From IMG/VR virus record IMGVR_UViG_3300046794_000311, positions 21,748-85,747 of that record: a stretch of DNA of 64,000 bases; one strand, given 5' to 3'. A program made the translations under genes and the position numbers. Source of the DNA: a virus. Positions 3,243 to 63,502 of this stretch are shown here, piece by piece. Within the stretch, counting starts at the first letter, position 1. The number at the start of each line of letters is the position of its first letter. The notes under the pieces are model-generated. The model was not told the DNA's origin and did not search any database. It was given only the letters and a program-made list of their open reading frames with translations.

Positions 3243-3401
3243 ATGATGACGAACACGCTCACCGGGCTTAATACCTCGGGCTCCGACGAGCCCCAGGTCA
3301 CCGTGACCCTCACCAACAACCGGATGGAAGACAGCCGCTGGAACCGGCTCCTCACCATCCTGTTCACCCCGCAGGACGAAGACACACCCGCAGCGACCTA
3401 G
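3243..3401 (+). CDS. 52-aa small protein upstream of the serine recombinase (not in ORF track)
   Basis: ATG 3243 to TAG 3401, MMTNTLTGLNTSGSDEPQ...; carries the CTTAATACC motif in frame as L-N-T like other genes. Confidence 0.5.
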   Translation: MMTNTLTGLNTSGSDEPQVTVTLTNNRMEDSRWNRLLTILFTPQDEDTPAAT

Positions 3402-3525
3402 CACAACTACCCCACACAGGCGGGCCGTTCCTCATATACTGCGCTGATCAACAAGACGGGCCTGCCCATCGCGAGTCTAGGCGCGAGGGACAGGCCCTTG
3501 ATCAGTCTGTAAAGGAGACTGAACC

Positions 3526-5619
3526 ATGGCCAGCATAGCGGCCGAGCGCGCCCGCGAACGCGCCCTGAAGGTAAATGGCACCCGCCCCGGCACCCCCGGC
3601 ACCCCCGGCACCTTCAAGTCCTGTACCGCCCTCGCACGCATCGTCAAGCGCGTCGGCGCGTACCTCCGCGTCTCCACCAAGGACCAGATCGTCGGCTACG
3701 GCCTCGACGTCCAGCTCAAGGGCATCCAGGACAACATCGACGTCAAGAACACGATGGAGGCGCGCAACGGCACCAACATCGTCTGGGAACTCTCCGACGT
3801 CTACGAGGACGCAGGCGAGTCCGGCGCCAAGCAGGACCGCCCCGAGATGATGCGCCTGGAGCGCGACGTACTCGCCAAGAAGATCGACGTCGTCGCCGTC
3901 CACAAGTTCGACCGCATCGGTCGCACCGGCCGCGCCTTCTGGCACTGGGTCTGGGCCCTCGAAGACGCCGGTACCTCGATCATGTCCGTCACCCAGGAGA
4001 TCGACACCACCACGACCCACGGCGTCACCGCACTCCAGCAGCTCGCGTCCTTCTCCGAAATGGAATGGCGCACCATCCTGGAGCGCACCCAGAACGGCCT
4101 CAACATGAAGGCCGCAGCCGGAGGCTGGACCGGCGGTCCCCCGCCCTTCGGCTACTGCATCGAGAACCAGGGCAAGCGCGACTCCAAGCTGGCTCTGCAC
4201 GCCGAGGAGTGCCGCACCCTCGACATCGCCGCCCAGATGATCGTCGAAGGCGGATACACCGTCGACCGCGCCGCGCACATGCTCAACCTCATCGGCCGCC
4301 TCACCCGCAAGGGCGTGGAGTGGACCGGATCCAACCTGCGGCACAAGTTCTTCAACACCGCCCTGGACGGTTTCGTCGTCTACCGAAACACCGACGAGGT
4401 AGTCAACAAGCGCCGCAAGCGCGCCACCAAGATGAACCCCGACGGCACCCCCAAGCACGGCCCGATGATGATCATCGACACCCCGATGGTCTTCGAGATC
4501 GACCGGCTCATGTCCATCCGCCACGCCCTCAAGCGAAACGGCTGGAACCTCACCGGCCCGTACAAGTACCACCCGCTCAGCACCCGCGTGATCGGTGAAT
4601 GCGGCGCCCACTACACCGGGGTCTGGGTAAAGGCAGAAGACCGCCGTACCTACCGATGCACCGGAAACAAATGCGGGGACTCGGTGATCGACGCCGTGGC
4701 GCTCGAAGAGGTCGTATGGGACAGCCTGAAGAACTTCCTCGGCGACAAGGAGAAGCTGCGCGAGATCGCCAAGGACTGGGTCACCACCGCGCCGGATCAC
4801 CGCAAGATGTACGAGGCGCGTATTGAAGAACTCACCCGGGAGATCTCGGGCCTGCGTGAGCTGACCACCACCACGCTGGTGAACCTCGCGAAGGCGGGCG
4901 TCGATGCGCTGGCCATCAATTCAGCAGTGGCGAAGCTGAACGAGGAGATCAACAACAAGCAGGCGATGCTGGACGACGCCGTGTCAATGCTGTCGGAGGC
5001 AGAAGAGGCCGCTACTCGGGCCGAGGATTTCCAGCGTCTGGTGGAGATCGCCAGCTTCAACCTGGAGCACATCACCGACCGGCAGAAGGCCGAAGTGATG
5101 GACCTGCTGGAGATTCAGGTGTCGCTCATGGGGCCGGTTCCGCTGGACGGCCGTTTCGGGCCGGACTCCGACATTGAGCAGTGGTTCGGGAAGCGCGGCG
5201 TTCAGCCGGTCGAGATGACCGATGCGCTGTGGGAGGAGGTCCGTCCTCGGATCAGCTTCCGGGTCACGAAGAAGAGCCACGATCTGCGGTCGCTGGTGGA
5301 GGGTCTGCTCTACAAGGCCCGCACGGGTTGCCCGTGGTCTGAGATGCCGGAGCACTTCCCGCCGAAGGAGGCGCTGAGGGCCCGCTGGAGGGCCTGGAAG
5401 GACGGGGCGTGGGAGAGCATCGTCGAGCCCCTTCTGGAGCCCGCTCCGCCGCGTAAGCCGCCTCTGCCGCCCATGAAGGTGACGGGGAACATCGACCCCC
5501 GTCTGGTCGAGTTCACGAACGGGCAGGCGACGAGCCAGGTTCCGCACTCTGGTGGACGAGCGTCCAGGGGTTCGTTCACGTACGTCATCAACCTGGAAAA
5601 ATGGCGATTGGCCGCCTGA
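3526..5619 (+). CDS. Large serine recombinase with C-terminal IS5-transposase N-terminal-like (DUF4096-type) domain
   Basis: YLRVST catalytic Ser, DRPE, KFDRIGR, GGPPPFGY, Zn ribbon (ECG...YRC...C), coiled coil; C-terminal MTDALW...LLYKARTGCPWSEMP...WRAWKDGAW. Confidence 0.9.
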   Translation: MASIAAERARERALKVNGTRPGTPGTPGTFKSCTALARIVKRVGAYLRVSTKDQIVGYGLDVQLKGIQDNIDVKNTMEARNGTNIVWELSDVYEDAGESGAKQDRPEMMRLERDVLAKKIDVVAVHKFDRIGRTGRAFWHWVWALEDAGTSIMSVTQEIDTTTTHGVTALQQLASFSEMEWRTILERTQNGLNMKAAAGGWTGGPPPFGYCIENQGKRDSKLALHAEECRTLDIAAQMIVEGGYTVDRAAHMLNLIGRLTRKGVEWTGSNLRHKFFNTALDGFVVYRNTDEVVNKRRKRATKMNPDGTPKHGPMMIIDTPMVFEIDRLMSIRHALKRNGWNLTGPYKYHPLSTRVIGECGAHYTGVWVKAEDRRTYRCTGNKCGDSVIDAVALEEVVWDSLKNFLGDKEKLREIAKDWVTTAPDHRKMYEARIEELTREISGLRELTTTTLVNLAKAGVDALAINSAVAKLNEEINNKQAMLDDAVSMLSEAEEAATRAEDFQRLVEIASFNLEHITDRQKAEVMDLLEIQVSLMGPVPLDGRFGPDSDIEQWFGKRGVQPVEMTDALWEEVRPRISFRVTKKSHDLRSLVEGLLYKARTGCPWSEMPEHFPPKEALRARWRAWKDGAWESIVEPLLEPAPPRKPPLPPMKVTGNIDPRLVEFTNGQATSQVPHSGGRASRGSFTYVINLEKWRLAA

Positions 5620-6010: not shown

Positions 6011-6316
6011 TCAGGTGAGGAGGGCATCGTCGTCCTCCCTGTCGAATCTGTGGGCGTGGTCGCGGATGTCGTCGGTCGACAGCGCGTTTCCGTATCCCTG
6101 GATTGCGGTGTAGAGGGCGTCGCTTTCCGAGCGCCAGGTGTGGCGCCAGCGGCCGAGGACGATTCCCTTTCCCGGCCATACCTTGATGACGAGGGAATTG
6201 GAACGCCGGTAGGGCGGCTCTATCTCGTCGGTGGGCGCGGTATGAAGAAGCGGCGTATGGGGGCGCAGGTTCACCGCGTGAACGAAGAAGGGCCCCACCC
6301 CATGTGTATTCGGCAT
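6011..6316 (-). CDS. Hypothetical protein
   Basis: 101-aa ORF, operon context. Confidence 0.55.
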   Translation of the reverse strand: MPNTHGVGPFFVHAVNLRPHTPLLHTAPTDEIEPPYRRSNSLVIKVWPGKGIVLGRWRHTWRSESDALYTAIQGYGNALSTDDIRDHAHRFDREDDDALLT

Positions 6317-8226: not shown

Positions 8227-8514
8227 CTAGAGATTAAGTCCCTTCTTCTGGAGTCGGTTCTTCAGCTTCGTGTAGGCGACGCTAACTGGCGTGAGTCCGC
8301 AGATCTCGGGAGTTTGCTTCTCTTTGTCTTCATCGGTCCAGTCCTTCTTCGGCTTGTCGAGGGGCGGTGGGGTCCACTTGAGGTGGTTGCCTCCGGTGAC
8401 CTCGATCTCCCAGCCCTGCTTGCGGGCCTTCTTGGCCAGCGCCTCGGTCTCCTTGTTGGTGCCGAGTTTCCCGCGTGTGCCGCTACCGGCAACTGCCTTG
8501 CCCTTGGGGGGCAT
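8227..8514 (-). CDS. HicA-like small basic protein
   Basis: ALAKKARKQGWEIEVTGGNHLKWTPP resembles the HicA GSH motif region; AGGAGG RBS. Confidence 0.55.
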   Translation of the reverse strand: MPPKGKAVAGSGTRGKLGTNKETEALAKKARKQGWEIEVTGGNHLKWTPPPLDKPKKDWTDEDKEKQTPEICGLTPVSVAYTKLKNRLQKKGLNL

Positions 8515-12717: not shown

Positions 12718-13227
12718 CTACAGCCACTCTCCGGTGATGGCTCCGTGGACGTCGGCCTCGCGGTAGGTGTCGGGCTTGAGGATCTTGCCGTCCTCGCGCC
12801 GGATCACCTGGCCGTCCGGGCCGACCTTACTCATGTTCGAACGGTGAACCTCGCCGAAGACCGCTTCGATCGGGATCTCCAGGAGGTCGGCGGTGCCGTA
12901 GACGATGTACAGGACGTCGGCCAACTCCTTGGCCAGCGCGTCGTACCAGCGCGGCGCCTCGACGACGTGAGGAGGGCCGAAGAGGGTCGTCTCCGGGTGC
13001 GCCTCAGCGTAGTCGTCGAAGATCTGGGCCTTGCGGTAGTTCAGAAGGGCCTCCAGGGCCTCCTGTACTTCCTCGCTGAGGAGAGTGGACCGCAGGGCGA
13101 TCAGGTCGTCCCGTCCGGCTTCGTCGCGCTCGATGAAGTACTTCTCCCCCACCGCGCGGTGCCACTGTCTCAGGGCAGCCATGGGCCGGTGGGGCCGGGT
13201 ATTAAGCCAGGTCTTCGTGGTGCTCAA
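12718..13227 (-). CDS. MazG-like/PRA-PH family nucleotide pyrophosphohydrolase
   Basis: LLSEEVQE...KELADVLYIVYG...EVHRSNMSK...REDGKILKP. Confidence 0.85.
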   Translation of the reverse strand: MSTTKTWLNTRPHRPMAALRQWHRAVGEKYFIERDEAGRDDLIALRSTLLSEEVQEALEALLNYRKAQIFDDYAEAHPETTLFGPPHVVEAPRWYDALAKELADVLYIVYGTADLLEIPIEAVFGEVHRSNMSKVGPDGQVIRREDGKILKPDTYREADVHGAITGEWL

Positions 13228-14161: not shown

Positions 14162-14430
14162 TCGGCGCCCCCGGAGGGGGAGGTATTAAGCAGGCTGAGG
14201 ATGGTGGCCTCGGTCGGGATCTGCATGAACGGCTCGGCCAACTGCACGGCGACCTGGGTGAAGGCGTCGCCGATCTGCTCGTACACGCCGCCCAGACCCT
14301 CCAACTTCTCGGAGAACTCCAGGAGGGAGCCGACGACGTCCTTGATGGAGACGTACGTCTCCTCGTCGTCGCCGACGACGTAGCGGTAGGCGGACTCGTG
14401 ATCGGATGCGATCTCGGTGACGATACTCAA
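14158..14430 (-). CDS. Hypothetical acidic protein
   Basis: GGAG RBS before TTG at 14430. Confidence 0.55.
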   Translation of the reverse strand: MSIVTEIASDHESAYRYVVGDDEETYVSIKDVVGSLLEFSEKLEGLGGVYEQIGDAFTQVAVQLAEPFMQIPTEATILSLLNTSPSGGAE

Positions 14431-14458: not shown

Positions 14459-15697
14459 TCAGAGCCAGATGCGGTGCTCACTGGTGACGCGTCCCTTCTC
14501 GGGGTGGACGAAGTGCAGGCGCTGGCTCGGGTCGCCGGTCGCGGCCACGAACTCATGGGCGTACACGTTGTCCGACTCGGGGCTGCCGGTCATGTAGACC
14601 GAGCCTCCATTGGCCAACTGGAGTTGCATGGACTGGTGGTAGTGGCCGATGTACAGGTCACGGAAGGTCGGCAGGACGCCGGAGGCCCACTGGTTGGCCT
14701 TGCGCAGGATGCCGTACGCCGGGATGTTCCCGCCGAAACTCTTGATCTCGTCGCCGTGGATGGCCATGGCCCGGTAGTTGCCGATGGAGAAGTTCTGGTA
14801 CCAGTCCCCGGAGGTCTGGAACTTCTTCAGGCGCCCCTCGTGGGCCAGCCGCTCGCGGACGATGTTGTAGACCATGCGGTCGACGTTGTCGGACGCCTTG
14901 ATGCCGTCGGACTTCTTGCCGAGGCGGCCGTGGTTGCCGTACTCGGCGACGACCTCGACCTCGTCGTAGATCTGGAGGGCCTGCTTGATCGTCCAGATCA
15001 TCAGGTCGGAGACGTCGAACATCTGCTCATAGAGCGTGCCGTCCAACTCCCAGACCTGGCCGGGGAAGATGCTGACGCCTTCGACCATGTCCCCGGTGAA
15101 GAGCAGGACGCCCTTGCGGACCGGGTGGTCGGCGCGCTGGATCTCGGTGATCTCGTGGGCCTTCTCGACGTACCGCATCACGCGGGTCCGCATGATGGTG
15201 CGGTCGTACGTGATGGTCTTCTTGCCGCCCTGCCAGTCCGTGAGGTGCCACAGGGCGACCTCGCTGGCCTTGGTGCGCTTGTCGGCCTTGGGCGGGGCCA
15301 CCGTGGTCGCTCCGACGAACTGTGCGGCGTCCCTCGCGGCGCGGTAGACGGCCTCGATGTACTCGTCTCCACGCGCCTTGGCCTTGGTGAACTGCTGGAA
15401 GAGTCGGCGGTTGTCGCCCTCCAGGGAGACGATGCGCTCCCTCAACTCCTCGTTCGCGGCCACTGCCTCGGCCTCGCCCTCCACGGGCTGGGTATTAAGC
15501 CGCTTCGGCTCCTTGCCCGGCTCGACGAGGATGGAGCGCTTGTAGCCGTTGGCCTTGCGCCAGCGCCGGACGGCCGTCTCGGACGTCTCGATGCCGTTGA
15601 AGACGAGGTCCGCAGCGGCGGCCTCGTGGCCGACGGTGGGGTCCATCAGGATCTCGCGGACCCACTCGACATCAGTGGACTCGGTAAGGGCGCTCAA
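14459..15697 (-). CDS. Calcineurin-like metallophosphoesterase/nuclease with N-terminal HTH and coiled coil
   Basis: Motifs TDWQ, TGDMVEG, YGNHGR, IHGD, IGHYH. Confidence 0.82.
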   Translation of the reverse strand: MSALTESTDVEWVREILMDPTVGHEAAAADLVFNGIETSETAVRRWRKANGYKRSILVEPGKEPKRLNTQPVEGEAEAVAANEELRERIVSLEGDNRRLFQQFTKAKARGDEYIEAVYRAARDAAQFVGATTVAPPKADKRTKASEVALWHLTDWQGGKKTITYDRTIMRTRVMRYVEKAHEITEIQRADHPVRKGVLLFTGDMVEGVSIFPGQVWELDGTLYEQMFDVSDLMIWTIKQALQIYDEVEVVAEYGNHGRLGKKSDGIKASDNVDRMVYNIVRERLAHEGRLKKFQTSGDWYQNFSIGNYRAMAIHGDEIKSFGGNIPAYGILRKANQWASGVLPTFRDLYIGHYHQSMQLQLANGGSVYMTGSPESDNVYAHEFVAATGDPSQRLHFVHPEKGRVTSEHRIWL

Positions 15698-17049: not shown

Positions 17050-17154
17050 GTAGTGCCTTTCTTACGGAAACGAGAACCCGGCGTTTTGAGATGGGGCCGG
17101 GTAACCATCAGCGAGCTATTTGTTCATAGGAGCATGGTCGCTATCCGCTCCTAG

Positions 17155-17227
17155 CTCCCCCACCTGGACTCGAACCAGGAACTCGCGGATTAACAGTCCG
17201 CTGCTCTGCCAATTGAGCTATGGAGGA
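17155..17227 (-). tRNA. tRNA-Asn(GTT)
   Basis: Cloverleaf: TCCTCCA/TGGGGGA acceptor, GCGGA-CTGTTAA-TCCGC anticodon arm, TTCGA T-loop. Confidence 0.93.
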
Positions 17228-26100: not shown

Positions 26101-26271
26101 GGAGAGACGACACCTCTCGTGGTGGGACAGGTGCCCGGTAGGTTCGCCGCCTGCCGGGCACCCGAATACCCGGGTTAGGTATTAAGCCGAACCACTTCCG
26201 TCTCCTCTCTGTCTCAGGCCGGGACAGCTCCCGGTATCGGTTGATCACTCTTCTCTCGAAGTCGTTCAGGC

Positions 26272-48418: not shown

Positions 48419-49411
48419 TTACGACCTCCGGTAAGGGGTGTTCCAAAGAGCCGCCTTCGCGAGCGCGGTGGCGGCGTCATCGAGCGGAGCCCCGTACAGG
48501 TCGGTCTCCTGCGCCTTGTGGGCCTCGACGTCCGCTGTGGCGAGAGCGTTCAGGGCCTGTACGGTGCCCTGCTGCTTGTGTGCCTGCCAGCGGAAGTTGT
48601 AGTAGTCGCCGTAGCCGGATCCCCCAGGGCCGAAAGCCTGTCGGCGGCCGAGGTGGATGTCGTCGAAGAGGGCCTTGGCCTGCTGGACGACGATCTTCTG
48701 GGAGGCGAGGGAGTTCTGCCACGTGGCGGAGTTCGGGGAGGCGCTGGAGGCCGTCTTGCGCAGGTGGTTGTAGCGCTCGACCAGCGTGCGGGCGTGGGCC
48801 TCCTCCGTCTGCACGGCGTCCCACCAGTGCTTCGGGTACAGGCTGTGCGGGTCGGCGGGCAGGGACGGCGGCCGGATGTCCCAGCGGTCGTGGGTGAGGT
48901 TGTAGGCGGCGTACGGGTTGATGGCCGCGATGGAATTCGCCGTGGTGCCCGGGTTCAGGTAGTAGGTGACCTCGTAGACCTGTCCGTGGAAATCGGTGGT
49001 CGCGGTGCGCGGCCACAGGTTCTTCTTCAGGTCCGAGTTCATCAGGTCGGAGAATTCGGCTTCGGAGACGCCCTGGTAGGTGGGGTTCATCTCGTAGAAC
49101 TTCGGGAAGTCAATTCCGAACAGCACGTCGAGGTCGCCGTTACCCCGGTCCCCAGCCCACTGGAAGGAGATGCCGGACCCGGCCAGCCAGGCGGCCAGCC
49201 AGGTACGAACGCCCTGGTAGCGACCGTCGAGGTAGGTATTAAGGACGCCGAGGATGTGGTCCCGGACGTCTGGCTTGATGTGGTCCCCGTCGAAGATGTG
49301 CGGGTCGAGCCCTGCCTGGGGCGTGCTGAAATACCCAGAGGCTCCCGAGTGAATGTCGGGCTGCTCTCCCTGGGTGATTGCTCGATTGAGATAGAACTCG
49401 TATCCGGCCAT
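48419..49411 (-). CDS. Pol-beta-superfamily nucleotidyltransferase-like protein
   Basis: WLAGSGIS...GDLDVLFG. Confidence 0.65.
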   Translation of the reverse strand: MAGYEFYLNRAITQGEQPDIHSGASGYFSTPQAGLDPHIFDGDHIKPDVRDHILGVLNTYLDGRYQGVRTWLAAWLAGSGISFQWAGDRGNGDLDVLFGIDFPKFYEMNPTYQGVSEAEFSDLMNSDLKKNLWPRTATTDFHGQVYEVTYYLNPGTTANSIAAINPYAAYNLTHDRWDIRPPSLPADPHSLYPKHWWDAVQTEEAHARTLVERYNHLRKTASSASPNSATWQNSLASQKIVVQQAKALFDDIHLGRRQAFGPGGSGYGDYYNFRWQAHKQQGTVQALNALATADVEAHKAQETDLYGAPLDDAATALAKAALWNTPYRRS

Positions 49412-49498: not shown

Positions 49499-49888
49499 TC
49501 AGAGTTTCAGGCGCGAGCGGAGGGCGGCCTCCTGGGCCTGCTGCTGCATGGCCTGGCCCATCATCATCATCGCCTGCTGGGTCCTCTGGGCCGTCTCCAT
49601 GACCTGGAGGTCCTTCAGCACGACGGAGGCCGCGCCGTAGATGTCGTCGGGGGTGGCGCCGCGCCGGGGGGCGTACTGCTGGGTGAGGTCGGAGGTGGCC
49701 ACGACCGCGCCGTCCAGCCCGATGGCGACGATGAACGCGGTGGTGACGGGGGTGCTGATCTCGTCCTCGGCGGGCGGGTTCTCCTCGGCCATCTTGGCCA
49801 GTGCCTCGCGCTGCTCGGGCGTGAGGTCGTCGGTATTAAGCGGCTTGTCGGCGCTGCTGGTCTGTCCGAGGATCGGGACGTTGGGCAT
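49499..49888 (-). CDS. Hypothetical protein
   Basis: GGAG RBS. Confidence 0.6.
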   Translation of the reverse strand: MPNVPILGQTSSADKPLNTDDLTPEQREALAKMAEENPPAEDEISTPVTTAFIVAIGLDGAVVATSDLTQQYAPRRGATPDDIYGAASVVLKDLQVMETAQRTQQAMMMMGQAMQQQAQEAALRSRLKL

Positions 49889-49917
49889 GTAGTGCTCCAA
49901 GTTTGGTTCGGGTGGGG

Positions 49918-50495: not shown

Positions 50496-51476
50496 TTACT
50501 TGCCGGTGGCCAGGTAGCGGCCGAGCAGCACGTAGGAGTCACCGGCCGTGGCGCCCTGGACGGCGACCTTCTTGCCGGAGATGGCGACCGTGCCGGACTT
50601 CGCGTGCGTGTAGCCCAGGGCCACGTTGGCCGGGCCGCCGACCGCGACGACGACGTCACCAGCAGCCAGAGCAGCCTTCGCGACGTCCACGCGACCGGTA
50701 GCGACGGCACCCTTGGGCTGGAACGCGTCAGTGGCCGCCGCAGCGGTCATGGAGTCGATGTTCTCGCCGAAGATCACCATCGTGTACGCCTTCGCAGGGG
50801 TTGGAGCAGGAGCAGGAGCGGGGGTCGGCTTGGGCGCCGGAGCGGGAGCCGGGGTCGGCTTGGGGGCCGCCTTCACCGGGATGGCCAGGGCCTTCCAGGT
50901 ATTAAGGTCCCCGTTCAGCAGGTTCTGGTCGACGTTGCCGACGATGCCGTACTGGTGCACGGTCCAGGTCGACCAGCCCTCGGTCAGCGGGTGCCCGGCC
51001 GGGTTGTTCGGGTCGGCCACCCACAGCGGGTAGGACCGCAGTTCCTTCTTCTGCGCGTCCGAAGCCACACCGAGCAGGCCGGTGAGGTAGGAGGTGTAGG
51101 TGTAGATGAACGGCGCCGCCTTGGTCTGCGCCTTGACGTACGCGAGCCACGTCAGTGCGTAGTGCAGACGCTGGCTCCAGGAGCCTTCGGAAGCCTCCAG
51201 GTCGAGCGCCAGGACCTCACCGGGCAGGGCGCCCGCAGCGGACAGGAAGTGCTTGGCCTCCGTCGCCGCGTCCTGGGTGGGGTGGGCGAAGTGGTAGTGG
51301 CCCAGGGCCTTCTTCGCCGCCCGGGTCGCCTTGACGATGCCTGCGTGCTTCGTGTCGCCCGTGTGCTCGCCCTCGGACGCCTTGGCGATGATGAACGCGT
51401 TGTTCTTGCTGGCGATGGCCGCAGCGATGTGCGCGGCGTCGTTGTTGTTGGAGAGGTCGACTCCGTGGAGGGACAT
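50496..51476 (-). CDS. GH25 lysozyme (endolysin) with Pro/Ala linker and C-terminal wall-binding domain
   Basis: GVDLS, AKASEG, GHYHFA, LALDLE, LWVA, HQY, VDQN. Confidence 0.88.
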   Translation of the reverse strand: MSLHGVDLSNNNDAAHIAAAIASKNNAFIIAKASEGEHTGDTKHAGIVKATRAAKKALGHYHFAHPTQDAATEAKHFLSAAGALPGEVLALDLEASEGSWSQRLHYALTWLAYVKAQTKAAPFIYTYTSYLTGLLGVASDAQKKELRSYPLWVADPNNPAGHPLTEGWSTWTVHQYGIVGNVDQNLLNGDLNTWKALAIPVKAAPKPTPAPAPAPKPTPAPAPAPTPAKAYTMVIFGENIDSMTAAAATDAFQPKGAVATGRVDVAKAALAAGDVVVAVGGPANVALGYTHAKSGTVAISGKKVAVQGATAGDSYVLLGRYLATGK

Positions 51477-51481
51477 CAGAC

Positions 51482-53443: not shown

Positions 53444-53555
53444 CAGCCGCCACATCCCTGGGTCTTCTGTGCGTCACGTATGGACTGCATCGGGTTCTTC
53501 GGAGTGGCCTTCTTGATCGCCTGGATCTGGCCCCGGAATTCCTGGCTGCGCACGG

Positions 53556-54113: not shown

Positions 54114-54123
54114 GGCTGCCTAC

Positions 54124-54462: not shown

Positions 54463-54476
54463 TGCTGGCTCCTTGG

Positions 54477-54755: not shown

Positions 54756-54811
54756 TTCGCCTCCACTGGATCAAACCCAGTGTAAAGACGGAAAGGCAGC
54801 GGATTAGAACC

Positions 54812-55645: not shown

Positions 55646-56244
55646 GCGAGTCGCAGGATCTCGCGGACCTTCGTATTAAGGTCCTCCAGCGTGCCGTCGT
55701 TGTTGATCCGGACGTCGAACCACTCGTCGGGCAGGCCCTTGTCGCTCTTGTGGGCGTTGACCGGGCCGTAGCCGGGACGGTCGATCTTGACCAGCAGGCC
55801 GATGCGGGAGTCGATCGCCTGGTGCTCGTTGACGAAGCGGACGTCGGTGAAGACGTACTTCTTGCCCTCCTCCAACTTCTTGAACACCGAGTCGACCCAC
55901 ACGTTCTGGTCGATCATCTCCCGGCCGACCTCGGTGCCCAGGACCTGGAGCATCCGTCGGATCTCCTCGTATTGGCGCTTGGCCTCGTCCCATCCGTGGC
56001 GGTCCACCAGGTCCTGGACTCGCTGGTCCTCGCCGTACGGGTGGAAGAGGATGACCGGGTTCAGTACGTACAGGGCCTCGCGCAGGACGTCGGCGAAGGC
56101 GACGCGGGTGTATCCGTAGTTGGCGAGGATCTTGGCGACGGCGTCCTTACCGGCCCCGGCGAATCCGTGGAGGCCGATGTACTGCGGAAGCCACGACTCG
56201 ACGATCTCGGTGTCGTTGTCGACAGGTGCGGTGGTGGTGTTCAC
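55642..56244 (-). CDS. Deoxynucleoside monophosphate kinase
   Basis: IGLHGFAGAGKD, FADVLR, LQVLGTE, TDVRFVNE, NDGTLEDL. Confidence 0.9.
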   Translation of the reverse strand: MNTTTAPVDNDTEIVESWLPQYIGLHGFAGAGKDAVAKILANYGYTRVAFADVLREALYVLNPVILFHPYGEDQRVQDLVDRHGWDEAKRQYEEIRRMLQVLGTEVGREMIDQNVWVDSVFKKLEEGKKYVFTDVRFVNEHQAIDSRIGLLVKIDRPGYGPVNAHKSDKGLPDEWFDVRINNDGTLEDLNTKVREILRLA

Positions 56245-56748: not shown

Positions 56749-57483
56749 TCACGGGCAGACCCTTCCGTTGTCGAGGAACGCTTCCCAGGTGAGCGGGAAG
56801 TGCTCGGCGAACGCGGCTTCCATGTCCATGGCCACGCGCTCGATCTCCTCCTGCGGGAAGGAGGGGAAGGTGGCGAACTCGCTCTTCGTCCGCAGGCCCA
56901 GGAAGTGCATCAGCGAGCGCGGGTTGCAGGTGGCGTAGAAGGAGGTGTACGTGCCGACCGGCAGGACGCTGCGGGCGACCTCGCGGGCGACTCCGTCCTT
57001 CAGCATCTGCTGGTAGTGGCTGTAGGCGGCGCGGTAGATGACGCCGAAGGAGTGCTCGACGGACAGGTACTGCTCCTCGGTGCCGTGCTCGAAGCGGTAC
57101 TCCCCCGCCTTGCCGACCTGGACCAGCGGGCGGTGCGCCGGAGGCATGTAGAAGGTCGGCTCCAACTCCCGGTATCTGCCGCTGGTTTCGTTATAACTCC
57201 AGCCAACCCTGTGCCTCATGAACTCGCGGGCGACGAAGATCGGGGCCTCGACGAGGAAGGACAACTGCGCGTGCTCGAACGGGGAGCCGTGCTTGTTCTT
57301 CATCAGGTAGTTGATCAGGCCCCGGGCTTCCTTGGTCTCCGCCGCAGCGGTGCCGACCGTGGAGACGCGAGCGGCCTTGCAGATCTTCGCGTCGGACCCG
57401 GCGACAGTCTCCGCGTCGAGCGTCGCGGTGATCGAGGACCGGAAGGTGACGGCCGCCGGAGCGACCGAGGTATTAAGCGACAT
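56749..57483 (-). CDS. thyX: Flavin-dependent thymidylate synthase
   Basis: HGSPFEH, REFMRHR..SYNETSGRY, REVARSVLP. Confidence 0.95.
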   Translation of the reverse strand: MSLNTSVAPAAVTFRSSITATLDAETVAGSDAKICKAARVSTVGTAAAETKEARGLINYLMKNKHGSPFEHAQLSFLVEAPIFVAREFMRHRVGWSYNETSGRYRELEPTFYMPPAHRPLVQVGKAGEYRFEHGTEEQYLSVEHSFGVIYRAAYSHYQQMLKDGVAREVARSVLPVGTYTSFYATCNPRSLMHFLGLRTKSEFATFPSFPQEEIERVAMDMEAAFAEHFPLTWEAFLDNGRVCP

Positions 57484-59727: not shown

Positions 59728-60071
59728 TACCACGACAGCACCTCGTCCGGGTCGGCGTCCGGGAACGCCTTGGTATTAAGCGTGAGGAAGGTCTCCTCGG
59801 ACATCACGATCCAGTTCCTTCCGCTTTCCATCTGGATCCCGAAGAGCATTTCCCTGCCGTCGAGGAGGGCCTGTTTCTCTGCGGTCTGGAGTTCTGCGTC
59901 TTTGATGGCGTACTGCTTCTTGCCGGTGACCTTGTACTCGACGGAGTACTCGGGGGTCCTGACGTCGTTCTTACGGACCCAGCCGTTTCCGCTACCCGCG
60001 TTCACCGTCCCGCCCAGAAGTGCCGCTCCCCGCCTCTCCTGCCGCTGGGATTTCTTCAGCATGTCCGCCAT
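59727..60071 (-). CDS. Holliday-junction resolvase-like PD-(D/E)XK nuclease
   Basis: QERR.A..LGG...GSG...KNDV...VEYK. Confidence 0.7.
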   Translation of the reverse strand: MADMLKKSQRQERRGAALLGGTVNAGSGNGWVRKNDVRTPEYSVEYKVTGKKQYAIKDAELQTAEKQALLDGREMLFGIQMESGRNWIVMSEETFLTLNTKAFPDADPDEVLSW

Positions 60072-60203: not shown

Positions 60204-61406
60204 TCAGGCGGCCTCGGTATTAAGCGCCTCGTCCTCGGCCTTGGGCCGTCGGCTGACCTTCTTCGTTCCGGCCGACTCGGCGGCGTCCAGGTCCTCTTCG
60301 GAGATGGACCGCTCGTCGACCTTCTTGGAGGCGATGAGGATCTTCTCGTACAGGGACTCCTGGAGGTCCAGGTCCTGTCGGACGTGGTCGAGCATGGGGT
60401 CCTTGCCCTGCCAGCGCAGGACCGGCTTGCCCTTGTCGTCGTACTCCCCGTTGTCGATCTGGAAGTAGGCGCCCTTGCGCTGGATGACGTCGAAGAGGAT
60501 CCCCATGATCATGATCTCCTTCACGGTGTCGAAGTCACCGCGAGCGAAGTTCAGGAACGGGGCGGAGCGGAAGTAGAAGTCGATGGTGGCGGTCTGCTGC
60601 GGGGCGGCCGACTTGTTCTTGATGGTCTTGACCTTGATGACCTGGCCGACGTTGACCTTGCCCTTGCCGGGCCGGGCCTCCTGGATCCACTCGTCGCGCC
60701 GGACCTCGACGCGGGTGTAGAACGCGTAGTTCTTGGCGTTGCCGCCCGGGGTCGTGGTCGGGGTGCCGTGCGGGGAGAACTTGCCGATGGCGTCGCGGTA
60801 CTGGTTGATCACGATGCCGAGCAGCGGCCGGTCGTCGGTGTCCGTCATGGATCGCTTGGTGGCCGCCCCGCTCTTGCGGAAGAACTTGCCGGTGAGGCGG
60901 GCACCGAGTGCCATGACGGCCTCGTCCATGTCCTTCTCCGACTCCTCGTCGGCGATGAGCGCCGGGTAGGAGTCGAGGACGATCATGTCGACGGACCGGC
61001 TGGCGGCGAAGTCGAGCATGGTCTGGTAGGCGAACTCCATGGCCTGGGTGGGGACGACCAGGACGCGCTCGTTGTCGACGCCGAGGGCTTCTGCCTGGTC
61101 GACGTCGTAGTGCTCTGCGGCGATCCACAGGCAGGTGAAGTTCGGGTCCTTCTTCTGGTTGGCCGCGAGGGTCTTGTAGACGATGGCGGTCTTGCCGTGG
61201 GACTCGCGGCCGATGACCTCGACCCACTGGTTGCCCGGCCAGCCGCCGCCGAGGGCGATGTCCAGGGACAGGGAGCCGGAGGTGAACCGCTTGGGGATGC
61301 GCATCTCGGAGGCGAAACAGACCGCGCCCGGGTGCTCCTTGTTGATCTTTGCGATGAGCGCGAGGGCTTCCTTGTCGGGGCCGCCCGCGCTGGTATTAAG
61401 TGACAT
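60204..61406 (-). CDS. recA: RecA/UvsX recombinase
   Basis: SGSLSLDIALGGG.P, GRESHGKT, IVLDS, VINQYR, TPGGNA..Y, KNK. Confidence 0.93.
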   Translation of the reverse strand: MSLNTSAGGPDKEALALIAKINKEHPGAVCFASEMRIPKRFTSGSLSLDIALGGGWPGNQWVEVIGRESHGKTAIVYKTLAANQKKDPNFTCLWIAAEHYDVDQAEALGVDNERVLVVPTQAMEFAYQTMLDFAASRSVDMIVLDSYPALIADEESEKDMDEAVMALGARLTGKFFRKSGAATKRSMTDTDDRPLLGIVINQYRDAIGKFSPHGTPTTTPGGNAKNYAFYTRVEVRRDEWIQEARPGKGKVNVGQVIKVKTIKNKSAAPQQTATIDFYFRSAPFLNFARGDFDTVKEIMIMGILFDVIQRKGAYFQIDNGEYDDKGKPVLRWQGKDPMLDHVRQDLDLQESLYEKILIASKKVDERSISEEDLDAAESAGTKKVSRRPKAEDEALNTEAA

Positions 61407-61493: not shown

Positions 61494-61537
61494 CCAGCGA
61501 TGTATCAACTAGTCAGAGCAAGATCTTTTGATGAATT

Positions 61538-63502
61538 TCAGGTGGTCACGAGGTCGACGTCCTCGCAGCCGCCGTCCGCCGAGCAAGCCAGCGTGCTGGA
61601 GCCCACGGTCTGGTCGAAGGTCTCGTAGAACGCCAGGTCCGACCACTCCACGCGGTGCTTCGTGGCCGCCAGCGCCTCGTACTCCTCCCGCGTGATCTCC
61701 TCGTACGGCGCCTGGACGTACGTGTGCTCGCTGAAGGGCAGGAAGGAGACGCCGGAGATCTCGGCCAGGTGCTCCCACACCCACTCGCCGACCTGCTCCC
61801 ACTCGTGCTCGCGGACGCTGATGGTCACCGACGGCTTGTGCTCGCACCAGTGCCTCTGGAAGGCCAGCCACAGTTCCAGGTGCTCGATGGCGCTCACGTC
61901 GTCCCGTACCAGGGCCTCCTCGCCAGCCTTCTGCGGGAAGGTGAACACCCACGCGGCGGAGTTGTAGGAGTCCTCCTCGTAGGGCAGGCCCGAGTCGATG
62001 AGCACGAACGCGATCGGGTCCTTCTTGTCCACCCGCACCCGACGCTTGTAGAACTTCGCGTGCTTCTGGTGCAGGCCGGACTCACAGTCGACCAACTGGG
62101 AGACCGTGCCGGACGGCTTGACGCAGGTGGTCGCAGCCGACGCCGGGATACCGATGCGGGCAGCCTCGGCCGCGTTGGCCTCCACCACACTCCCGCGCAG
62201 GTCCGCCAGCAGCACCTCGGTCGTCTTCAGATTGACCGTGCCGTTGGTCCAGCGGTTGCCGTAGACCCCGGTGAGGGAGACACCCAGCAGGCGCTCCTCC
62301 TCCGCGTTCTTACGCCACTCCTCGCGCAGGTAGGGGTAGTCGGTCAGCGTCGACTGCCAGGTGCCCAGGACGGACGCCAGGCGCACCTTGCGGTACAGGT
62401 CCTCGGGGGTGTCCTCCGGCCTTACGACGACCTCGGAGAGATTGCAGAACGAGAACGGCCGGAGAATGATCTCCGAGCACGGGTTGGTCCCGTAGTCGGT
62501 GTCCTCCTCCCGGCGCCCGAACTTCGCCGCCTGACGCTGCGCTGCGCCACGGTGGAAGATGCCACGCTCACCCGAGCCGCTGGCTACGAGGGAGTCCCAC
62601 TCGGTGTGGAATTCCTCGTAGCGCATGCCGTCGGTGTAGACGGCCGAGTTGTTCGCCAGGGCGCGGTAGGGGTGCTCGACCCACCACTCCCCGCTCTTGG
62701 CCTCGGCCATCTCGCGGTCGTCCAGGTCGGACAGGGAGATCATCGCCGACCGGCGGACACCGCCGACGACCACGACGGACGCGATCTTGCATGCGATGTC
62801 GTGGACCTCGATCGGACGGAACTTCCGCCCGGCGGCCTGCTGGAACTTCTCGACGGTGAAGGTGAACAGGTCGTCCAGCGGACCCGGGCCGGAGGCTCGC
62901 CCTCCGAAGGTATTAAGACGTGCGCCAGCCGGTCGCACCTTGGACAGGTCCCAGTCGACGCGCTTGCCGTTCCACAGGGAGGTCAGCAGCGCGCGGTAGG
63001 CCAGGCCCCAGCCCTCCTTGGAGTCCTCGACGGGGATGTACACGCGGTCGTCGTACTCGATGACCTCGGGGACGGCAGGCAACTGGTCGGTGTACTTCCT
63101 CTCGACCGAGTAGCCGACCCCGGTGCCGTTCATCAGGACGTACAGCAGCTCGTCCAGAGCGCGGGCGTCCTTCAGCGGGAGGTACGAGCAGTTGAAGCCC
63201 GCGATGTTCGATCGGTCCAGGGCGGGACCGGCCGTCATGACCGCGCGCATCGACGGCATGACCTCGTGGTTGAGGATGGCCGCATGGACCTCGTCGACCA
63301 CGGTGGGGTCGGGGGTGTAGTCGTGCTTGTCCTTCAACTGGGCCAGCATGAACGTCACGTAGCGGGCGACGGTCTCGGACCAGGTCTCGCGCCGGTTCTC
63401 GTCCTCGATCCACCTGCTGTATCGCGACTTGGCGATGAAGGAGCGGTAGGGGTCGGCGATGTCACCGGCAGGGGTGAGCAGGGAAGTCACCAGGGTTTCC
63501 AT
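61538..63502 (-). CDS. nrdJ: Class II (B12-dependent) ribonucleotide reductase
   Basis: RRETW, FNCSY, GTGVG, GGVRRSA, TNPCSEI, CVKPSGT, EHKPS, C-terminal C...C. Confidence 0.93.
   Translation of the reverse strand: METLVTSLLTPAGDIADPYRSFIAKSRYSRWIEDENRRETWSETVARYVTFMLAQLKDKHDYTPDPTVVDEVHAAILNHEVMPSMRAVMTAGPALDRSNIAGFNCSYLPLKDARALDELLYVLMNGTGVGYSVERKYTDQLPAVPEVIEYDDRVYIPVEDSKEGWGLAYRALLTSLWNGKRVDWDLSKVRPAGARLNTFGGRASGPGPLDDLFTFTVEKFQQAAGRKFRPIEVHDIACKIASVVVVGGVRRSAMISLSDLDDREMAEAKSGEWWVEHPYRALANNSAVYTDGMRYEEFHTEWDSLVASGSGERGIFHRGAAQRQAAKFGRREEDTDYGTNPCSEIILRPFSFCNLSEVVVRPEDTPEDLYRKVRLASVLGTWQSTLTDYPYLREEWRKNAEEERLLGVSLTGVYGNRWTNGTVNLKTTEVLLADLRGSVVEANAAEAARIGIPASAATTCVKPSGTVSQLVDCESGLHQKHAKFYKRRVRVDKKDPIAFVLIDSGLPYEEDSYNSAAWVFTFPQKAGEEALVRDDVSAIEHLELWLAFQRHWCEHKPSVTISVREHEWEQVGEWVWEHLAEISGVSFLPFSEHTYVQAPYEEITREEYEALAATKHRVEWSDLAFYETFDQTVGSSTLACSADGGCEDVDLVTT

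Follow-up and report, generated by a model that had tools for sequence, protein, structure and literature searches.

Why would a temperate, Streptomyces-type phage write the same nine letters, in three rare codons, at about 30 sites in its own genes? The word, CTTAATACC, came to attention in a preliminary description of the window (the whole 64,000-nt stretch analysed here, bases 21748-85747 of an 85,747-bp IMG/VR virus record), which reported 22 copies of the shorter CTTAATAC and proposed that they form a polar, genome-wide signal. That core inference holds, and the word can be followed from the DNA into the mRNA and, more tentatively, to a reader.

A polar word in rare codons

The 22 copies of CTTAATAC are reproduced exactly, in number and position: 21 lie on the minus strand and one on the plus strand (3267-3274), and 21 extend to CTTAATACC, the copy at 55672-55680 reading CTTAATACG. 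Two CTTAATAT variants are found where they had been reported (45738-45746 and 48233-48241). The claimed rarity by chance is borne out: 100 dinucleotide-preserving shuffles of the window average 0.09 copies of CTTAATAC and never hold more than 1, against 22 observed. The entire 85.7-kb record holds 27 copies of CTTAATACC (26 reverse/minus, 1 forward/plus) and 0 occurrences of the same pattern read backwards; GGTATTAAG is the top over-represented 9-mer (26 observed vs 0.02 expected under an order-2 Markov model), and its sub- and superstrings lead all over-representation lists from k=6 to k=12. The enrichment also stands against the codon-preserving shuffle suggested earlier: when the proteins and the codon pool are kept (n=1000), called genes hold on average 0.115 sense copies (maximum 2) vs 25 observed, with 0 antisense copies. 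Of the L-N-T tripeptides in the proteome, 25/29 are written as CTTAATACC, and across ten genomes the motif codons spell 251/268 cognate L-N/H-T tripeptides. The word is real and selected.

The sites in the window are as follows (sister phages are related genomes, considered below):

3267..3275, plus strand: CTTAATACC, codons 9-11 of a 52-aa ORF (3243-3401) upstream of a serine recombinase; 6-bp hairpin from +11
6239..6247, minus strand: CTTCATACC, the sister variant, present once in this otherwise AAT-type genome; in frame, codon 10 of an 87-aa ORF
13198..13206, minus strand: motif copy, codons 8-10 of a MazG/PRA-PH-like gene (12718-13227)
14182..14190, minus strand: motif copy, ~10 codons upstream of the stop codon in a 107-aa ORF; hairpin after it; next gene starts ~29 nt downstream
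15491..15499, minus strand: motif copy, codon 67 of a 412-aa ORF
21140..21148, minus strand: motif copy, codon 128 of Pnkp (kinase + HAD phosphatase)
22599..22607, minus strand: motif copy, codon 108 of a T4-type RNA ligase
24985..24993, minus strand: motif copy, codons 3-5 of a 151-aa ORF; then a 7-bp hairpin
26178..26186, minus strand: motif copy in a structured leader (26092..26198), within the 6-codon mini-ORF MVRLNT*
26943..26951, minus strand: motif copy, codons 4-6 of a 109-aa signal-peptide-like ORF; then a 6-bp hairpin; palindrome-bearing promoter region directly upstream
44218..44226, minus strand: motif copy, in frame in an uncalled ORF for a secreted-looking small protein
45738..45746, minus strand: variant CTTAATATG, codon 94 of a 512-aa ORF; CTTCATATG at the aligned place in sister phages
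46257..46265, minus strand: motif copy, codon 174 of a 243-aa ORF
48233..48241, minus strand: variant CTTAATATC, codon 60 of a 282-aa ORF; then a 10-bp hairpin; CTTCATATC in sister phages
49235..49243, minus strand: motif copy, codon 57 of a 330-aa ORF
49832..49840, minus strand: motif copy, codon 17 of a 129-aa ORF
50898..50906, minus strand: motif copy, codon 191 of a GH25 endolysin
52226-52234 and 52247-52255, minus strand: two copies, 21 nt apart, near the end of a 416-aa ORF (13 and 20 codons upstream of its stop)
55672..55680, minus strand: variant CTTAATACG, 12 codons before the dNMP kinase stop; CTTCATACC in sister phages
57469..57477, minus strand: motif copy, codons 3-5 of ThyX; then a 7-bp hairpin
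59772..59780, minus strand: motif copy, 17 codons upstream of the stop codon in a 114-aa ORF; then a 6-bp hairpin
60216..60224, minus strand: motif copy in RecA, 6 codons upstream of its stop; then a 7-bp hairpin
61392..61400, minus strand: motif copy, codons 3-5 of RecA; the aligned sister-phage copy lies in a 10-codon leader mini-ORF
62909..62917, minus strand: motif copy, codon 196 of a class II ribonucleotide reductase; then a 7-bp hairpin

Pfam supports the names given earlier to Pnkp, RNA ligase, GH25 endolysin, dNMP kinase, ThyX, RecA (two motif copies) and class II RNR; the 512-aa protein that had been called TGT-like has no Pfam match at E<=0.001.

Genes were called with our own simple gene caller. 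Of 30 CTTAATA sites in this phage, 28 fall inside called genes, all 28 on the sense strand and in the frame CTT-AAT-A; the other two (26178-26186; 44218-44226) are also in frame, in uncalled ORFs, so that 22/22 copies in the window read L-N-T: the reading proposed earlier stands, its count of 21/22 does not. Every copy is on the sense strand of its ORF, as claimed, including those in leader mini-ORFs, and only 2/28 copies lie outside gene calls, though ~14% of the record is non-coding. In five genomes, 107/123 sites are in called genes, 107/107 in frame 0, and a start codon lies in frame with each of the remaining 16, in several cases preceded by a clear SD (e.g., MVRLNT*, MRLHTYGGPC*). Copies concentrate in short leader ORFs or near the beginning of genes, within the first ~10 codons: 29/123 sites lie 0-29 nt past the start codon, vs 4.9 expected. 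The opposite orientation is absent despite coding freedom, as had been argued, with 0/47 synonymously writable antisense places carrying the word. Does the polarity belong to the genome or to the gene? The 52-aa plus-strand ORF (3243-3401), which lies between a minus-strand tyrosine integrase and the plus-strand serine recombinase, is telling: all seven related genomes with a minority-strand copy carry it sense and in frame, in a small minority-strand ORF beside a recombinase, and its place inside that ORF varies between genomes. Polarity thus tracks the gene strand, not the genome strand (7/7).

The word is the 5' part of a composite mRNA element

The 32 nt after the motif fold with a mean of -10.8 kcal/mol, vs -7.4 in 2440 in-frame control windows (Mann-Whitney p=7e-33), whereas the upstream side shows no extra folding (mean -6.3 kcal/mol). 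A perfect stem of at least 5 bp starts exactly at +11 at 49% of 244 unique sites, vs 4.1% of controls; the hairpin is GC-rich, mostly with a 4-nt loop, and alike in both motif types described below (71/124 and 65/120). Its sequence is variable and its distance fixed. The motif itself is predicted to be single-stranded (mean unpaired probability 0.64 vs 0.37 in controls). What the mRNA carries is a composite element with the 9-mer as its 5' part: an in-frame CUU-AAU-ACC, a 2-nt spacer and, at about half of the sites, a hairpin.

One copy sits in a more elaborate setting:

26092..26198, minus strand: structured leader; MVRLNT* stop, then the anti-motif GGTATT (26165-26170), then a long second stem

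In this leader, the RBS and the ATG of the gene that follows (25414-26100; DUF2637 + HTH) are paired in helices. The leader motif pairs with an anti-motif that covaries by type (A-U in 5 genomes, C-G in 4), and the loop and the motif/anti-motif spacing vary between genomes.

Two spellings and a candidate reader

Three things are absent from the preliminary description: the downstream hairpin, the variant CTTCATACC of the sister phages, and the gene of the candidate reader. Each of ten related genomes uses either CTTAATACC or CTTCATACC, in roughly 25-40 copies; beyond a single stray CTTCATACC copy in this genome, none of the ten mixes AAT with CAT, GAT or TAT. At 21/30 sites of this phage the other variant stands at the aligned place (in G001 and/or G002). 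The preliminary description had asked whether homologs keep CTT-AAT at these positions; at those 21, sister phages keep the place and have the other variant. Lineage-specific gains of the CAT type are all in frame (e.g., CTGCACACC to CTTCATACC), and further new CAT-type sites arose where AAT-type genomes have unrelated codons. The AAT-type word is blocked in its other frames by TAA and by TTA (TTA is used 0 times), whereas the CAT-type word meets no stop or TTA codon there; still, CAT-type genomes carry it in those two frames at 0/12 synonymously accessible places. This frame argument is partly one of ancestry, many sites being common to both types, and it draws on only 12 test places.

What could tell the two spellings apart? 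The best candidate, judging from association and family, is a small protein:

8227..8514, minus strand: candidate reader, 95-aa HicA-like protein; palindrome-bearing upstream region and downstream hairpin

In a 5 vs 5 genome-wide comparison this protein ranks first both ways (same-type identity at least 70-73%, other-type at most 40-42%); 46% of its alignment columns separate the types, the highest share among 215 genes, and its allele follows motif type with no exception across 10 AAT-type and 13 CAT-type contigs. The motif types are, however, also two lineages, with at least one type-separating column in 205/215 genes, so the association amounts to about one evolutionary switch. The gene ends in ...GGA CTT AAT CTC TAG. 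A homolog is also encoded by the motif-less relative G005, and other small proteins are strongly type-differentiated (53, 64-65 and 66-68 aa, plus a CAT-type-only 92-aa gene); among the type-linked small proteins scanned, none matches a Pfam DNA-binding family.

The HicA assignment comes from the family and from a model. Pfam HicA_toxin is matched by 33/41 family members at E<=0.1 (best 5.9e-6), though not by the window's own protein, and JGI annotation names three members HicA-like. The predicted model has the order alpha-beta-beta-beta-alpha and aligns with four HicA structures over 53-60 residues (rmsd 2.7-2.8) at Z 4.2-4.6, and a Z of 4-5 is a weak score for so small a fold; neither profile nor sequence searches of the PDB recovered HicA, and Foldseek returned nothing at E<=0.001. 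HicA proteins are mRNA interferases with a double-stranded-RNA-binding-type fold, and we know of no HicA with 9-nt specificity. The available text of one source describes E. coli HicA cleavage as strongly biased to just before codon position 1, which makes ribosome independence hard to reconcile, and lists its specificity as "poorly defined" (PMC8546651).

The tRNA genes also differ between the types:

17154..17227, minus strand: phage tRNA-Asn(GTT), cognate to the middle codon AAT

All loci have tRNA-Asn; an extra tRNA-His(GTG) is present at 9/11 CAT-type loci vs 0/9 AAT-type loci, two CAT-type genomes being without it. The phage tRNAs have ordinary anticodon loops.

How might the word be read?

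The word is probably a control signal, previously undescribed, that is read during translation; we found nothing on such a motif system in the published literature. Among the four candidates listed in the preliminary description, the RNA site (CUUAAUAC) fits best, because of the frame, the mini-ORFs, the 2-nt hairpin distance, the covarying anti-motif and the linked HicA-like protein of an RNA-binding/RNase family. Our tentatively favoured model is a translation-coupled mRNA pause or target element read by a variant-specific phage factor. The element would be read while under translation: when CUU occupies the P site and AAU the A site, the hairpin begins 12 nt away from the first base in the P site, about where mRNA enters the ribosome, and the ribosome should therefore dwell with AAU awaiting tRNA-Asn. 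A variant-specific, phage-encoded factor would then act on the dwelling complex, the two very different HicA-like alleles tracking AAU and CAU, and marked messages would likely be cut or repressed, to an extent that may be tuned by cognate tRNA supply (the phage tRNA-Asn here, the added tRNA-His in most CAU-type phages). Such control may serve either lysogenic silencing and immunity or the timing of the lytic cycle.

If the ribosome dwells at the word, is a protein reader needed at all? CUU is a P-site codon known to slip, and a slippery CUU followed by a wobble-read NAU and a hairpin could be a pause or abortive +1 frameshift site, whose efficiency reports how much of one tRNA is available (tRNA-Asn here, tRNA-His in the sister lineage); the phage tRNA genes would thereby set the expression of ~30 genes. 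This would account for the reading frame, the mini-ORFs, the bias to N-termini and the constant distance of the hairpin; the added tRNA matches exactly the changed codon, and in Ty1, CUU_AGG_C, with a slow A-site codon, is described as giving ~40% +1 frameshifting (PMC5009743, as far as its available text goes). We nevertheless consider it unlikely: the host's own tRNA-Asn and tRNA-His should in any case decode these codons, the phage anticodon loops are ordinary, tRNA-Asn is kept by all CAT-type phages and tRNA-His is missing from two, and the fixed ACC, the exact nine letters and the never-mixed AAT/CAT/GAT/TAT go unexplained. No used +1-frame ORFs were seen (the median next +1 stop lies at 50 codons vs 34 in controls), and the next codon after a +1 shift would be the rare AUA.

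Alternatively, the ribosome could have no part in recognition of the RNA, the reader being an RNA-binding regulator that does not cleave or another phage RNase, as at T4 RegA/RegB-type sites or nut-like "linear box plus hairpin" sites, with the frame a by-product of coding and ancestry. The sense strand, the unpaired motif beside a stem and the closeness to start codons suit this proposal, as do the blocked frames of the AAT type and the many CAT sites inherited from shared places. It is decidedly unlikely even so: lineage-specific CAT-type gains are also all in frame, sites beyond called genes have start codons of their own, and placement in UTRs, although cost-free, is not preferred.

About as unlikely, in our estimate, is a stoperator-like role, in which an asymmetric-site repressor (possibly a small type-linked protein) binds the double-stranded 9-mer and blocks RNA polymerase from one side, silencing prophage genes and defining immunity groups. 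Cluster A stoperators are described, in the available text, as 13-bp asymmetric, transcription-oriented sites, up to ~30 per genome, whose motifs covary with the repressor (PMC6550527); the phage word shares their orientation, copy number and lineage-specific variants, and that part of the earlier suggestion stands. The phage is temperate too, with two recombinases and relatives (G005, G006) classed as proviruses. Yet it leaves unexplained why the frame is strict, why the mini-ORFs have start codons and why the word is absent from the other frames of CAT-type genomes, and it accounts neither for a variable-sequence hairpin at a fixed distance nor for a covarying anti-motif with variable spacing; the ~12 kb of non-coding DNA is not preferred, 9 bp is short for such a site, promoter regions are already marked by a separate 23-bp palindrome, the gene most closely linked to type comes from an RNA-binding/RNase family, and no Pfam DNA-binding family is matched by the type-linked small proteins scanned.

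A DNA-strand signal (recombination, replication, packaging or nicking; Chi/KOPS-like, primase) or a DNA-modification target is most improbable: over-representation, near-complete one-strand bias and a phage-encoded RecA speak for it, but Chi, KOPS and packaging roles are contradicted by an orientation that flips with gene strand in the only minority-strand block, where the site also shifts within its ORF, frame, start-codon closeness and mini-ORFs have no role in such models, one letter switched everywhere demands a specific reader, and a TGT/DpdA target, of the kind proposed earlier for the TGT-like enzyme, is unsupported, that protein having no Pfam match.

If the word is indeed a translation-coupled element read by a variant-specific phage factor, it would constitute a single post-transcriptional switch over ~30 genes, existing in two specificity groups that do not cross-react.

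The word, its copies and its two spellings

The 9-nt word CTTAATACC, read as the codons CTT-AAT-ACC (Leu-Asn-Thr), is the most over-represented word in this phage at each length tried; its anatomy and its distribution among related phages are matters of direct observation. The 8-mer core, CTTAATAC, occurs 22 times in the window (21 copies on the minus strand, 1 on the plus strand) against 0.09 expected, which reproduces the count in the preliminary description. Of these copies, 21 extend to CTTAATACC, and the record as a whole holds 27, with the one-sided orientation persisting throughout (26 on one strand and 1 on the other). The enrichment survives shuffles that preserve both the protein sequences and the codon pool: these yield 0.115 copies, versus 25 observed within called genes. 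CTT and AAT are indeed rare codons here, as had been claimed (CTT 125 vs CTG 983; AAT 92 vs AAC 779), and 25 of the 29 Leu-Asn-Thr tripeptides in the proteome are spelled CTTAATACC. One CTTAATACG and two CTTAATAT bring the phage to 30 sites. A stretch of ~17 kb of minus-strand genes (window 26952-44217) has no copy of the word; ten of its larger proteins have no functional names in Pfam or PHROGs (PHROGs of unknown function), except for DUF2786/DUF7168 in one.

The record (85,747 bp, estimated 86% complete, with the window covering bases 21748-85747) encodes a myovirus structural module (terminase, portal, major head, sheath and tape-measure-like tail proteins; PHROGs and Pfam), both a tyrosine integrase and a large serine recombinase (Pfam), a DNA/RNA-metabolism block (RecA, class II RNR, ThyX, dNMP kinase, Pnkp, RNA ligase, a MazG-like protein and a GH25 endolysin; Pfam), four tRNAs and one c-di-AMP riboswitch. 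By our own simple gene caller, coding sequence amounts to 69,441 bp on the minus strand and 4,524 bp on the plus strand. The nearest named phages by capsid protein are Streptomyces phages BRock, LuckySocke, Alone3, GiJojo and pSt2308 (~73-75% identity), whereas IMG/VR relatives are much closer (90-96%); a megablast search with 8 kb against the phage collection gave no match. The BRock locus (L049) has no enriched word, and neither variant of the word, nor any comparably enriched one, occurs in the provirus G005 (83% capsid identity). An exact 14-mer scan of prokaryote genomes for prophages returned, among the matches listed, only scattered single chance ones. Four RNA-library runs contain parts of the stretch as assembled contigs, which carry no ends, strand or level, and some of these span motif sites; contigs at least 99% identical to window 47328-55078 are short and come from two 2017 soil metatranscriptome runs (X18 and X20). 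At least half of the sampled words of a 10-kb stretch are present, as presence only, in 16 soil and rhizosphere DNA runs from 13 studies.

What do the closer relatives have at these places? Six structural-module sites aligned to them show CTTAATACC in some genomes and, at the same place, the sister variant CTTCATACC in others, and these define the AAT and CAT types.

Copies of the word per genome, counted over whole records (G000 is this phage, the others are related virus genomes; G006 is a provirus in the IMG/VR classification)
Genome, type, total copies (majority strand / minority strand)
G000, AAT type, 27 (26/1)
G003, AAT type, 21 (20/1)
G006, AAT type, 38 (37/1)
G009, AAT type, 26 (26/0)
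G010, AAT type, 24 (24/0)
G001, CAT type, 29 (28/1)
G002, CAT type, 35 (34/1)
G004, CAT type, 10 (9/1)
G007, CAT type, 24 (23/1)
G008, CAT type, 31 (31/0)

The variants are never mixed within any of these ten genomes, bar one CTTCATACC in this phage:

6239-6247 (-), stray CTTCATACC, in frame at codon 10 of an 87-aa ORF; same place in G001 and G002, absent in G003 and G004

This stray copy may be a recombination relic or may be functional. Conservation of CTT-AAT at the same Leu-Asn-Thr positions, raised in the preliminary description, holds for some relatives and not for others: at 21 of this phage's 30 sites G001 and/or G002 have the C variant at the aligned position, while four sites align to an unrelated string of triplets and five are unalignable. 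Weaker variants have switched as well (CTTAATATC to CTTCATATC, CTTAATATG to CTTCATATG), and private sites have been gained by point changes in both lineages, for example CTGAACGCC in the C type vs CTTAATACC in this phage, or CTGCACACC in three genomes vs CTTCATACC in G002. That more than 20 scattered places have changed in concert implies that each site is selected to match a single reader, which would differ between the two lineages.

Strand, reading frame and the downstream hairpin

The lone plus-strand copy lies in a small gene next to the recombinase:

3243-3401 (+), small ORF with the lone plus-strand copy
3526-5619 (+), large serine recombinase with a C-terminal DUF4096 (IS4/5 transposase-like; Pfam E 3.6e-14)

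All seven genomes that have a minority-strand copy carry it in sense and in frame within such an ORF of ~50-60 aa; in six of them it lies close to the N terminus, in G004 at the C-terminal end. The reverse complement was found at none of 47 places where it could be written synonymously (G-I-K, G-M-K, x-Y-E-x). Polarity therefore follows transcription and translation rather than the genome strand, and the claim that every copy is on the sense strand stands: within called genes, 28 of 28 CTTAATA sites are sense and read CTT-AAT-A in frame, and the two others lie in frame in ORFs missed by our caller, including a leader of 6 codons (MVRLNT*) that has a good Shine-Dalgarno (SD) sequence. An antisense small RNA seeded by the opposite-strand copy was considered and rejected, since that copy is itself an in-frame part of a conserved coding ORF.

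The frame is fixed along with the strand. For the AAT word both alternative frames are closed, one by TAA and the other by TTA, which is used 0 times; in the CAT type, by contrast, they are open (x-TTC-ATA-CCx and xCT-TCA-TAC-Cxx), and the codons ATA (31) and TCA (38) are no rarer in G001 than CAT is outside the motif. Across five genomes, 107 sites fall within called genes, every one of them in frame 0, and all 16 outside called genes have an in-frame start; several of the latter are SD-preceded mini-ORFs of 6-16 codons, such as MKTIRLHT*, MTAALHT*, MRLHTYGGPC* before recA and MRLNTWVAV* overlapping the next start. Cognate L-[N/H]-T tripeptides are written as the word in 251 of 268 cases, peptide contexts that would allow it synonymously in frames 1 or 2 in 0 of 12, and the non-coding ~14% of the record is not favoured even though the word would be cost-free there. 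Sites are concentrated at gene starts: 29 of the 123 fall within 0-29 nt after a called start, versus 4.9 expected. Drawn from few test places and from many sites of shared ancestry, these counts point to a word that probably must be translated.

The word is followed by RNA structure. The 32 nt after it fold with a mean of -10.8 kcal/mol vs -7.4 kcal/mol in 2440 in-frame control windows (p=7e-33), while the 32 nt before it (-6.3 kcal/mol) are not more stable than controls. A perfect stem of at least 5 bp starts exactly 2 nt past the 9-mer at 49% of 244 unique sites vs 4.1% of controls, or at 56% vs 8.3% when one base either way is allowed; the two types behave alike (71/124 and 65/120), and within the window the stem follows 12 of 25 sites, counted with the variants. 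Loops are of 4 nt in 54 of the 119 stems starting at +11. Stem and loop sequences vary from site to site; it is thus the structure that is kept, which points to a constraint acting on RNA or another single-stranded nucleic acid. With CUU in the P site, the stem would begin at +12 from the first P-site base, 5 nt beyond the NAU codon. This is about where mRNA enters the ribosome. In the available text on a eukaryotic system, stem-loop-stimulated frameshifting peaks with 6-8 nt spacers (PMC3458567), placing the 5-nt spacing at the short end of the known range.

One site has a different partner. In the leader of the DUF2637/HTH gene (25414-26100), the word is directly followed by a stop codon and an anti-motif: AATACC...GGTATT in five AAT-type genomes and CATACC...GGTATG in four CAT-type genomes, 5-8 nt apart. 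RNAalifold pairs the word with the anti-motif, the type-defining pair being A-U in five genomes and C-G in four, and adds a long second stem with compensatory changes, as well as helices that would sequester the ribosome-binding site and ATG of the downstream gene; 8 of 31 pairs are doubly changed. The region matches no Rfam family. On this model, the leader resembles a sensor for the agent, whatever it is, that acts on the word.

A candidate reader and the phage tRNAs

If the word has a lineage-specific reader, which gene encodes it? Genes were ranked by how well they separate the five AAT-type from the five CAT-type genomes, and the same small gene came first from both reference genomes:

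8227-8514 (-), HicA-like protein, 95 aa here and 81 aa in the CAT type

Sequences of one type share at least 70-73% identity, those of different types at most 40-42%, and type-separating columns make up 46% of the alignment, the highest value among 215 genes. In all the contigs compared (10 AAT-type, 13 CAT-type), allele and type agree. Motif type and lineage coincide, however: 205 of the 215 genes have at least one separating column, and this association therefore counts as roughly a single evolutionary event. Strong differentiation is seen in further small proteins as well (53, 64-65 and 66-68 aa, and one of 92 aa whose gene is confined to the CAT type), which have no functional names in Pfam or PHROGs. 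G005 has a homolog although it lacks the word. Intermediate alleles combine the insertion-bearing body with the ...GLHI end; a metagenome scan for them found two distant loci only. Relative to the window's protein, that of G006 and an NCBI-named one from Streptomyces sp. BK022 both show 73% identity and, on the strength of this equal value, may be identical.

The family assignment comes from relatives and from fold. Of 41 aligned relatives, 33 match Pfam HicA_toxin (PF07927) at E<=0.1 (best 5.9e-6); JGI gives the name HicA-like to three relatives, and a precomputed PF07927 match exists for one. The window's own protein, with a 14-aa insertion, has no PF07927 match in Pfam. Its model (pLDDT 71) has the alpha-beta-beta-beta-alpha, dsRBD-like order (H21-32, E36-40, E44-48, E70-73, H78-91), with an extra helix in an insertion, and superposes weakly on HicA chains 6g26_F, 1whz, 4p78_C and 6hpb_A (Z 4.2-4.6, rmsd 2.7-2.8, 53-60 residues); a sequence search of the PDB gave nothing significant, and Foldseek nothing at E<=0.001. 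G42-N43-H44 is invariant or nearly so in 41 sequences, the N-H pair being invariant, and a non-significant alignment to 1whz (E 1.4) places H44 opposite its G-H. We take the equivalent histidine of HicA, which follows a glycine where strand 2 begins, to be the catalytic one. The gene stands alone, with its own upstream palindrome region and a terminator-like hairpin after it; no recognised HicB antitoxin is adjacent, and the neighbours (167, 94 and 66 aa) have no functional Pfam or PHROG match. Its 3' end is the cognate word or a near copy of it (CTTAATCTC here, CTTAATACC in G006, CTTCATATC or CTTCATACG in the CAT type), which is recorded and not relied upon. In the available text of a study of E. 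coli HicA, cleavage shows a strong preference for the position just before the first base of a codon, a bias that its authors find hard to square with ribosome independence (PMC8546651); by analogy, cutting at codon boundaries would suit a target locked to the reading frame.

About a dozen gene starts, among them those of terminase, the HicA-like gene and recA, are preceded at 16-68 nt by a 23-bp palindrome of the form ATTACGGCTT-CTG-AAGCCGTAAT or by its half-sites (window 835, 8570, 15766, 18623, 23652, 26977, 28129, 33496, 40525, 43844 and 61438). The palindrome resembles an operator associated with promoters and separate from the 9-mer.

All the phages share tRNA-Asn(GTT), tRNA-Leu(CAA), tRNA-Phe and tRNA-Pro. 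Here these tRNAs, and the RNA-repair genes, are arranged as follows:

17154-18344 (-), tRNA operon in the order Pro, Phe, ydaO riboswitch, hydrolase, tRNA-Leu(CAA), tRNA-Asn(GTT)
17401-18024, LysM-NlpC/P60 hydrolase
18024-18164, c-di-AMP (ydaO) riboswitch, 58 bits
20606-22928 (-), Pnkp and T4-type RNA ligase, an RNA-repair pair with a 99-aa ORF between them and one internal word each

Pnkp and the ligase might, speculatively, heal RNA ends left by an RNase such as the HicA-like protein. An extra tRNA-His(GTG) is present in 9 of 11 CAT-type loci and in 0 of 9 AAT-type loci (L091:9573-9658 (-), with counterparts in L102, L126 and L128-L133); it is 86 nt long with a long variable arm and, judged by eye from the sequence, retains the extra 5' G and the C discriminator. 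The added tRNA is the cognate of exactly the changed codon. A sensor made of tRNA only, with no protein reader, is one rival explanation; two CAT-type genomes do without tRNA-His, and its gain also represents about one evolutionary event. Pairing of the word with a phage tRNA anticodon loop was rejected: the tRNA-Asn and tRNA-His loops are ordinary and not complementary to it.

Proposed mechanism, alternatives and known systems

Most support goes to an mRNA element that is coupled to translation: codons and a pausing hairpin on which a variant-specific phage factor would act. From these patterns we infer pausing, cleavage and the identity of the reader: the in-frame CUU-NAU-ACC and its hairpin would pause the ribosome on the phage's own messages; the variant-specific factor, most likely the HicA-like protein, would act on the paused element; the cognate phage tRNA would serve as competitor or tuner; and the purpose might be prophage silencing with immunity groups, or lytic timing. 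A fuller version is tentative, and we think it rather improbable in all its parts: a domesticated HicA toxin would have become a ribosome-dependent, three-codon-specific "RNA operator" reader that cuts or blocks, in the A site, ~30 messages marked by CUU-NAU-ACC and a pausing hairpin, in competition with tRNA-Asn or tRNA-His, and at more than 20 places reader and word would have switched together, either from AAU to CAU or from CAU to AAU, setting up post-transcriptional immunity groups and the first stoperator-like system to act on translating mRNA.

Besides the tRNA-only sensor, a second rival is an RNA-binding regulator that works independently of the ribosome; the fixed hairpin would suit it, and the single translated frame would not. 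Phage T4 offers a parallel, as RegB and RegA exert post-transcriptional control over many of the phage's own messages through short RNA words near starts. For RegB this word is GGAG, within Shine-Dalgarno regions; for RegA the sites overlap start codons. We know of no RegB or RegA site that is in frame within coding sequence, followed by a hairpin or found in switched variants.

A stoperator-like DNA site, one of the candidates in the preliminary description, fares less well. The available text on the stoperators of Cluster A phages (L5, Bxb1, Trixie) describes tens of short asymmetric words, spread genome-wide and oriented with transcription, whose consensus differs from one relative to another in step with a phage factor and so sets up specificity (immunity) groups (PMC6550527); the 27 sense-strand copies of our word, and the seven of seven minority-strand copies that track gene strand, fit this picture well. 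Stoperators are, however, 13-bp double-stranded DNA sites bound by a helix-turn-helix (HTH) repressor, and that text reports no reading-frame rule for them (PMC6550527). Frame-independent action on double-stranded DNA is hard to reconcile with a 9-nt word confined to one translated frame in ORFs and mini-ORFs, often at codons 3-10, with a variable-sequence hairpin at a fixed distance after it, a covarying anti-motif in one leader and a link to an RNase family. The motif covaries with lineage, and the gene most strongly linked to it is HicA-like rather than an HTH repressor, alongside several small linked proteins with no family match. Signals on the DNA strand, such as the proposed Chi/KOPS-like cue or packaging and replication signals, are unlikely, because orientation flips with the sole minority-strand gene block in 7/7 genomes and the frame is fixed. 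Two further candidates are not supported: the TGT-like enzyme is a 512-aa protein (window 44487-46025, -) with no Pfam match at E<=0.001, and an antitermination site, which resembles the word in having a linear box then a hairpin (boxA and boxB of lambda nut) and phage-specific variants, would have to account for ~30 translated sites with stems and loops that all differ. The nut sites of lambda number two and lie in untranslated leaders; they are read on the nascent RNA, and the antiterminator recognises their conserved hairpin loop.

The layout of a frameshift or pause cassette is also present: CUU, then AAU or CAU (rare and wobble-read), then, at 49% of the 244 sites, a stem 5 nt on. It recalls Ty1 CUU_AGG_C (+1), in which, in the available account, a CUU P-site codon precedes a slowly read one (PMC5009743), and the slippery site, spacer and stem-loop of -1 frameshifting, with the stem at a fixed distance, here 5 nt past the presumed A-site codon (PMC3458567, likewise in part). 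Unlike such cassettes, the word is present in ~30 copies per genome in unrelated genes, with no conserved alternative-frame product, and has all nine letters fixed with one switched lineage-wide. Use of +1 or -1 frame products was rejected for want of a signal: +1-frame ORFs after the sites have a median of 50 codons vs 34 in controls, which is not unusual, and an excess of early stops in the +2 frame arises from the TAA inside the AAT-type word.

HicA mRNA interferases resemble the proposed reader in family, by the relatives' Pfam matches and by fold, and the codon-boundary cutting seen in E. coli would suit its target; their specificity, in the available text, is poorly defined and short, and they are neutralised by a HicB antitoxin (PMC8546651). 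The phage protein differs in having no recognised HicB, an implied 9-nt target in the phage's own messages and two alleles for two words. The literature covered (spellings of the word, BRock and relatives, actinobacteriophage motifs) yields no description of the word, although supplementary files of phage genome papers may contain motif lists; among the matches listed, all hits to the spellings are primers or miRNAs.

For annotation, the word generates rare-codon clusters and mini-ORFs that gene callers overlook. If the translation-coupled reading is true, it would add a new layer of phage gene control, in which a frame-locked three-codon word and its structural partner are read during translation by a factor specific to each lineage. 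A toxin-family RNase would be able to evolve a long, switchable specificity, which would be relevant to programmable RNA tools, and phage tRNA genes would be regulatory partners rather than codon-usage helpers only. Immunity-like specificity groups could then be RNA-based.
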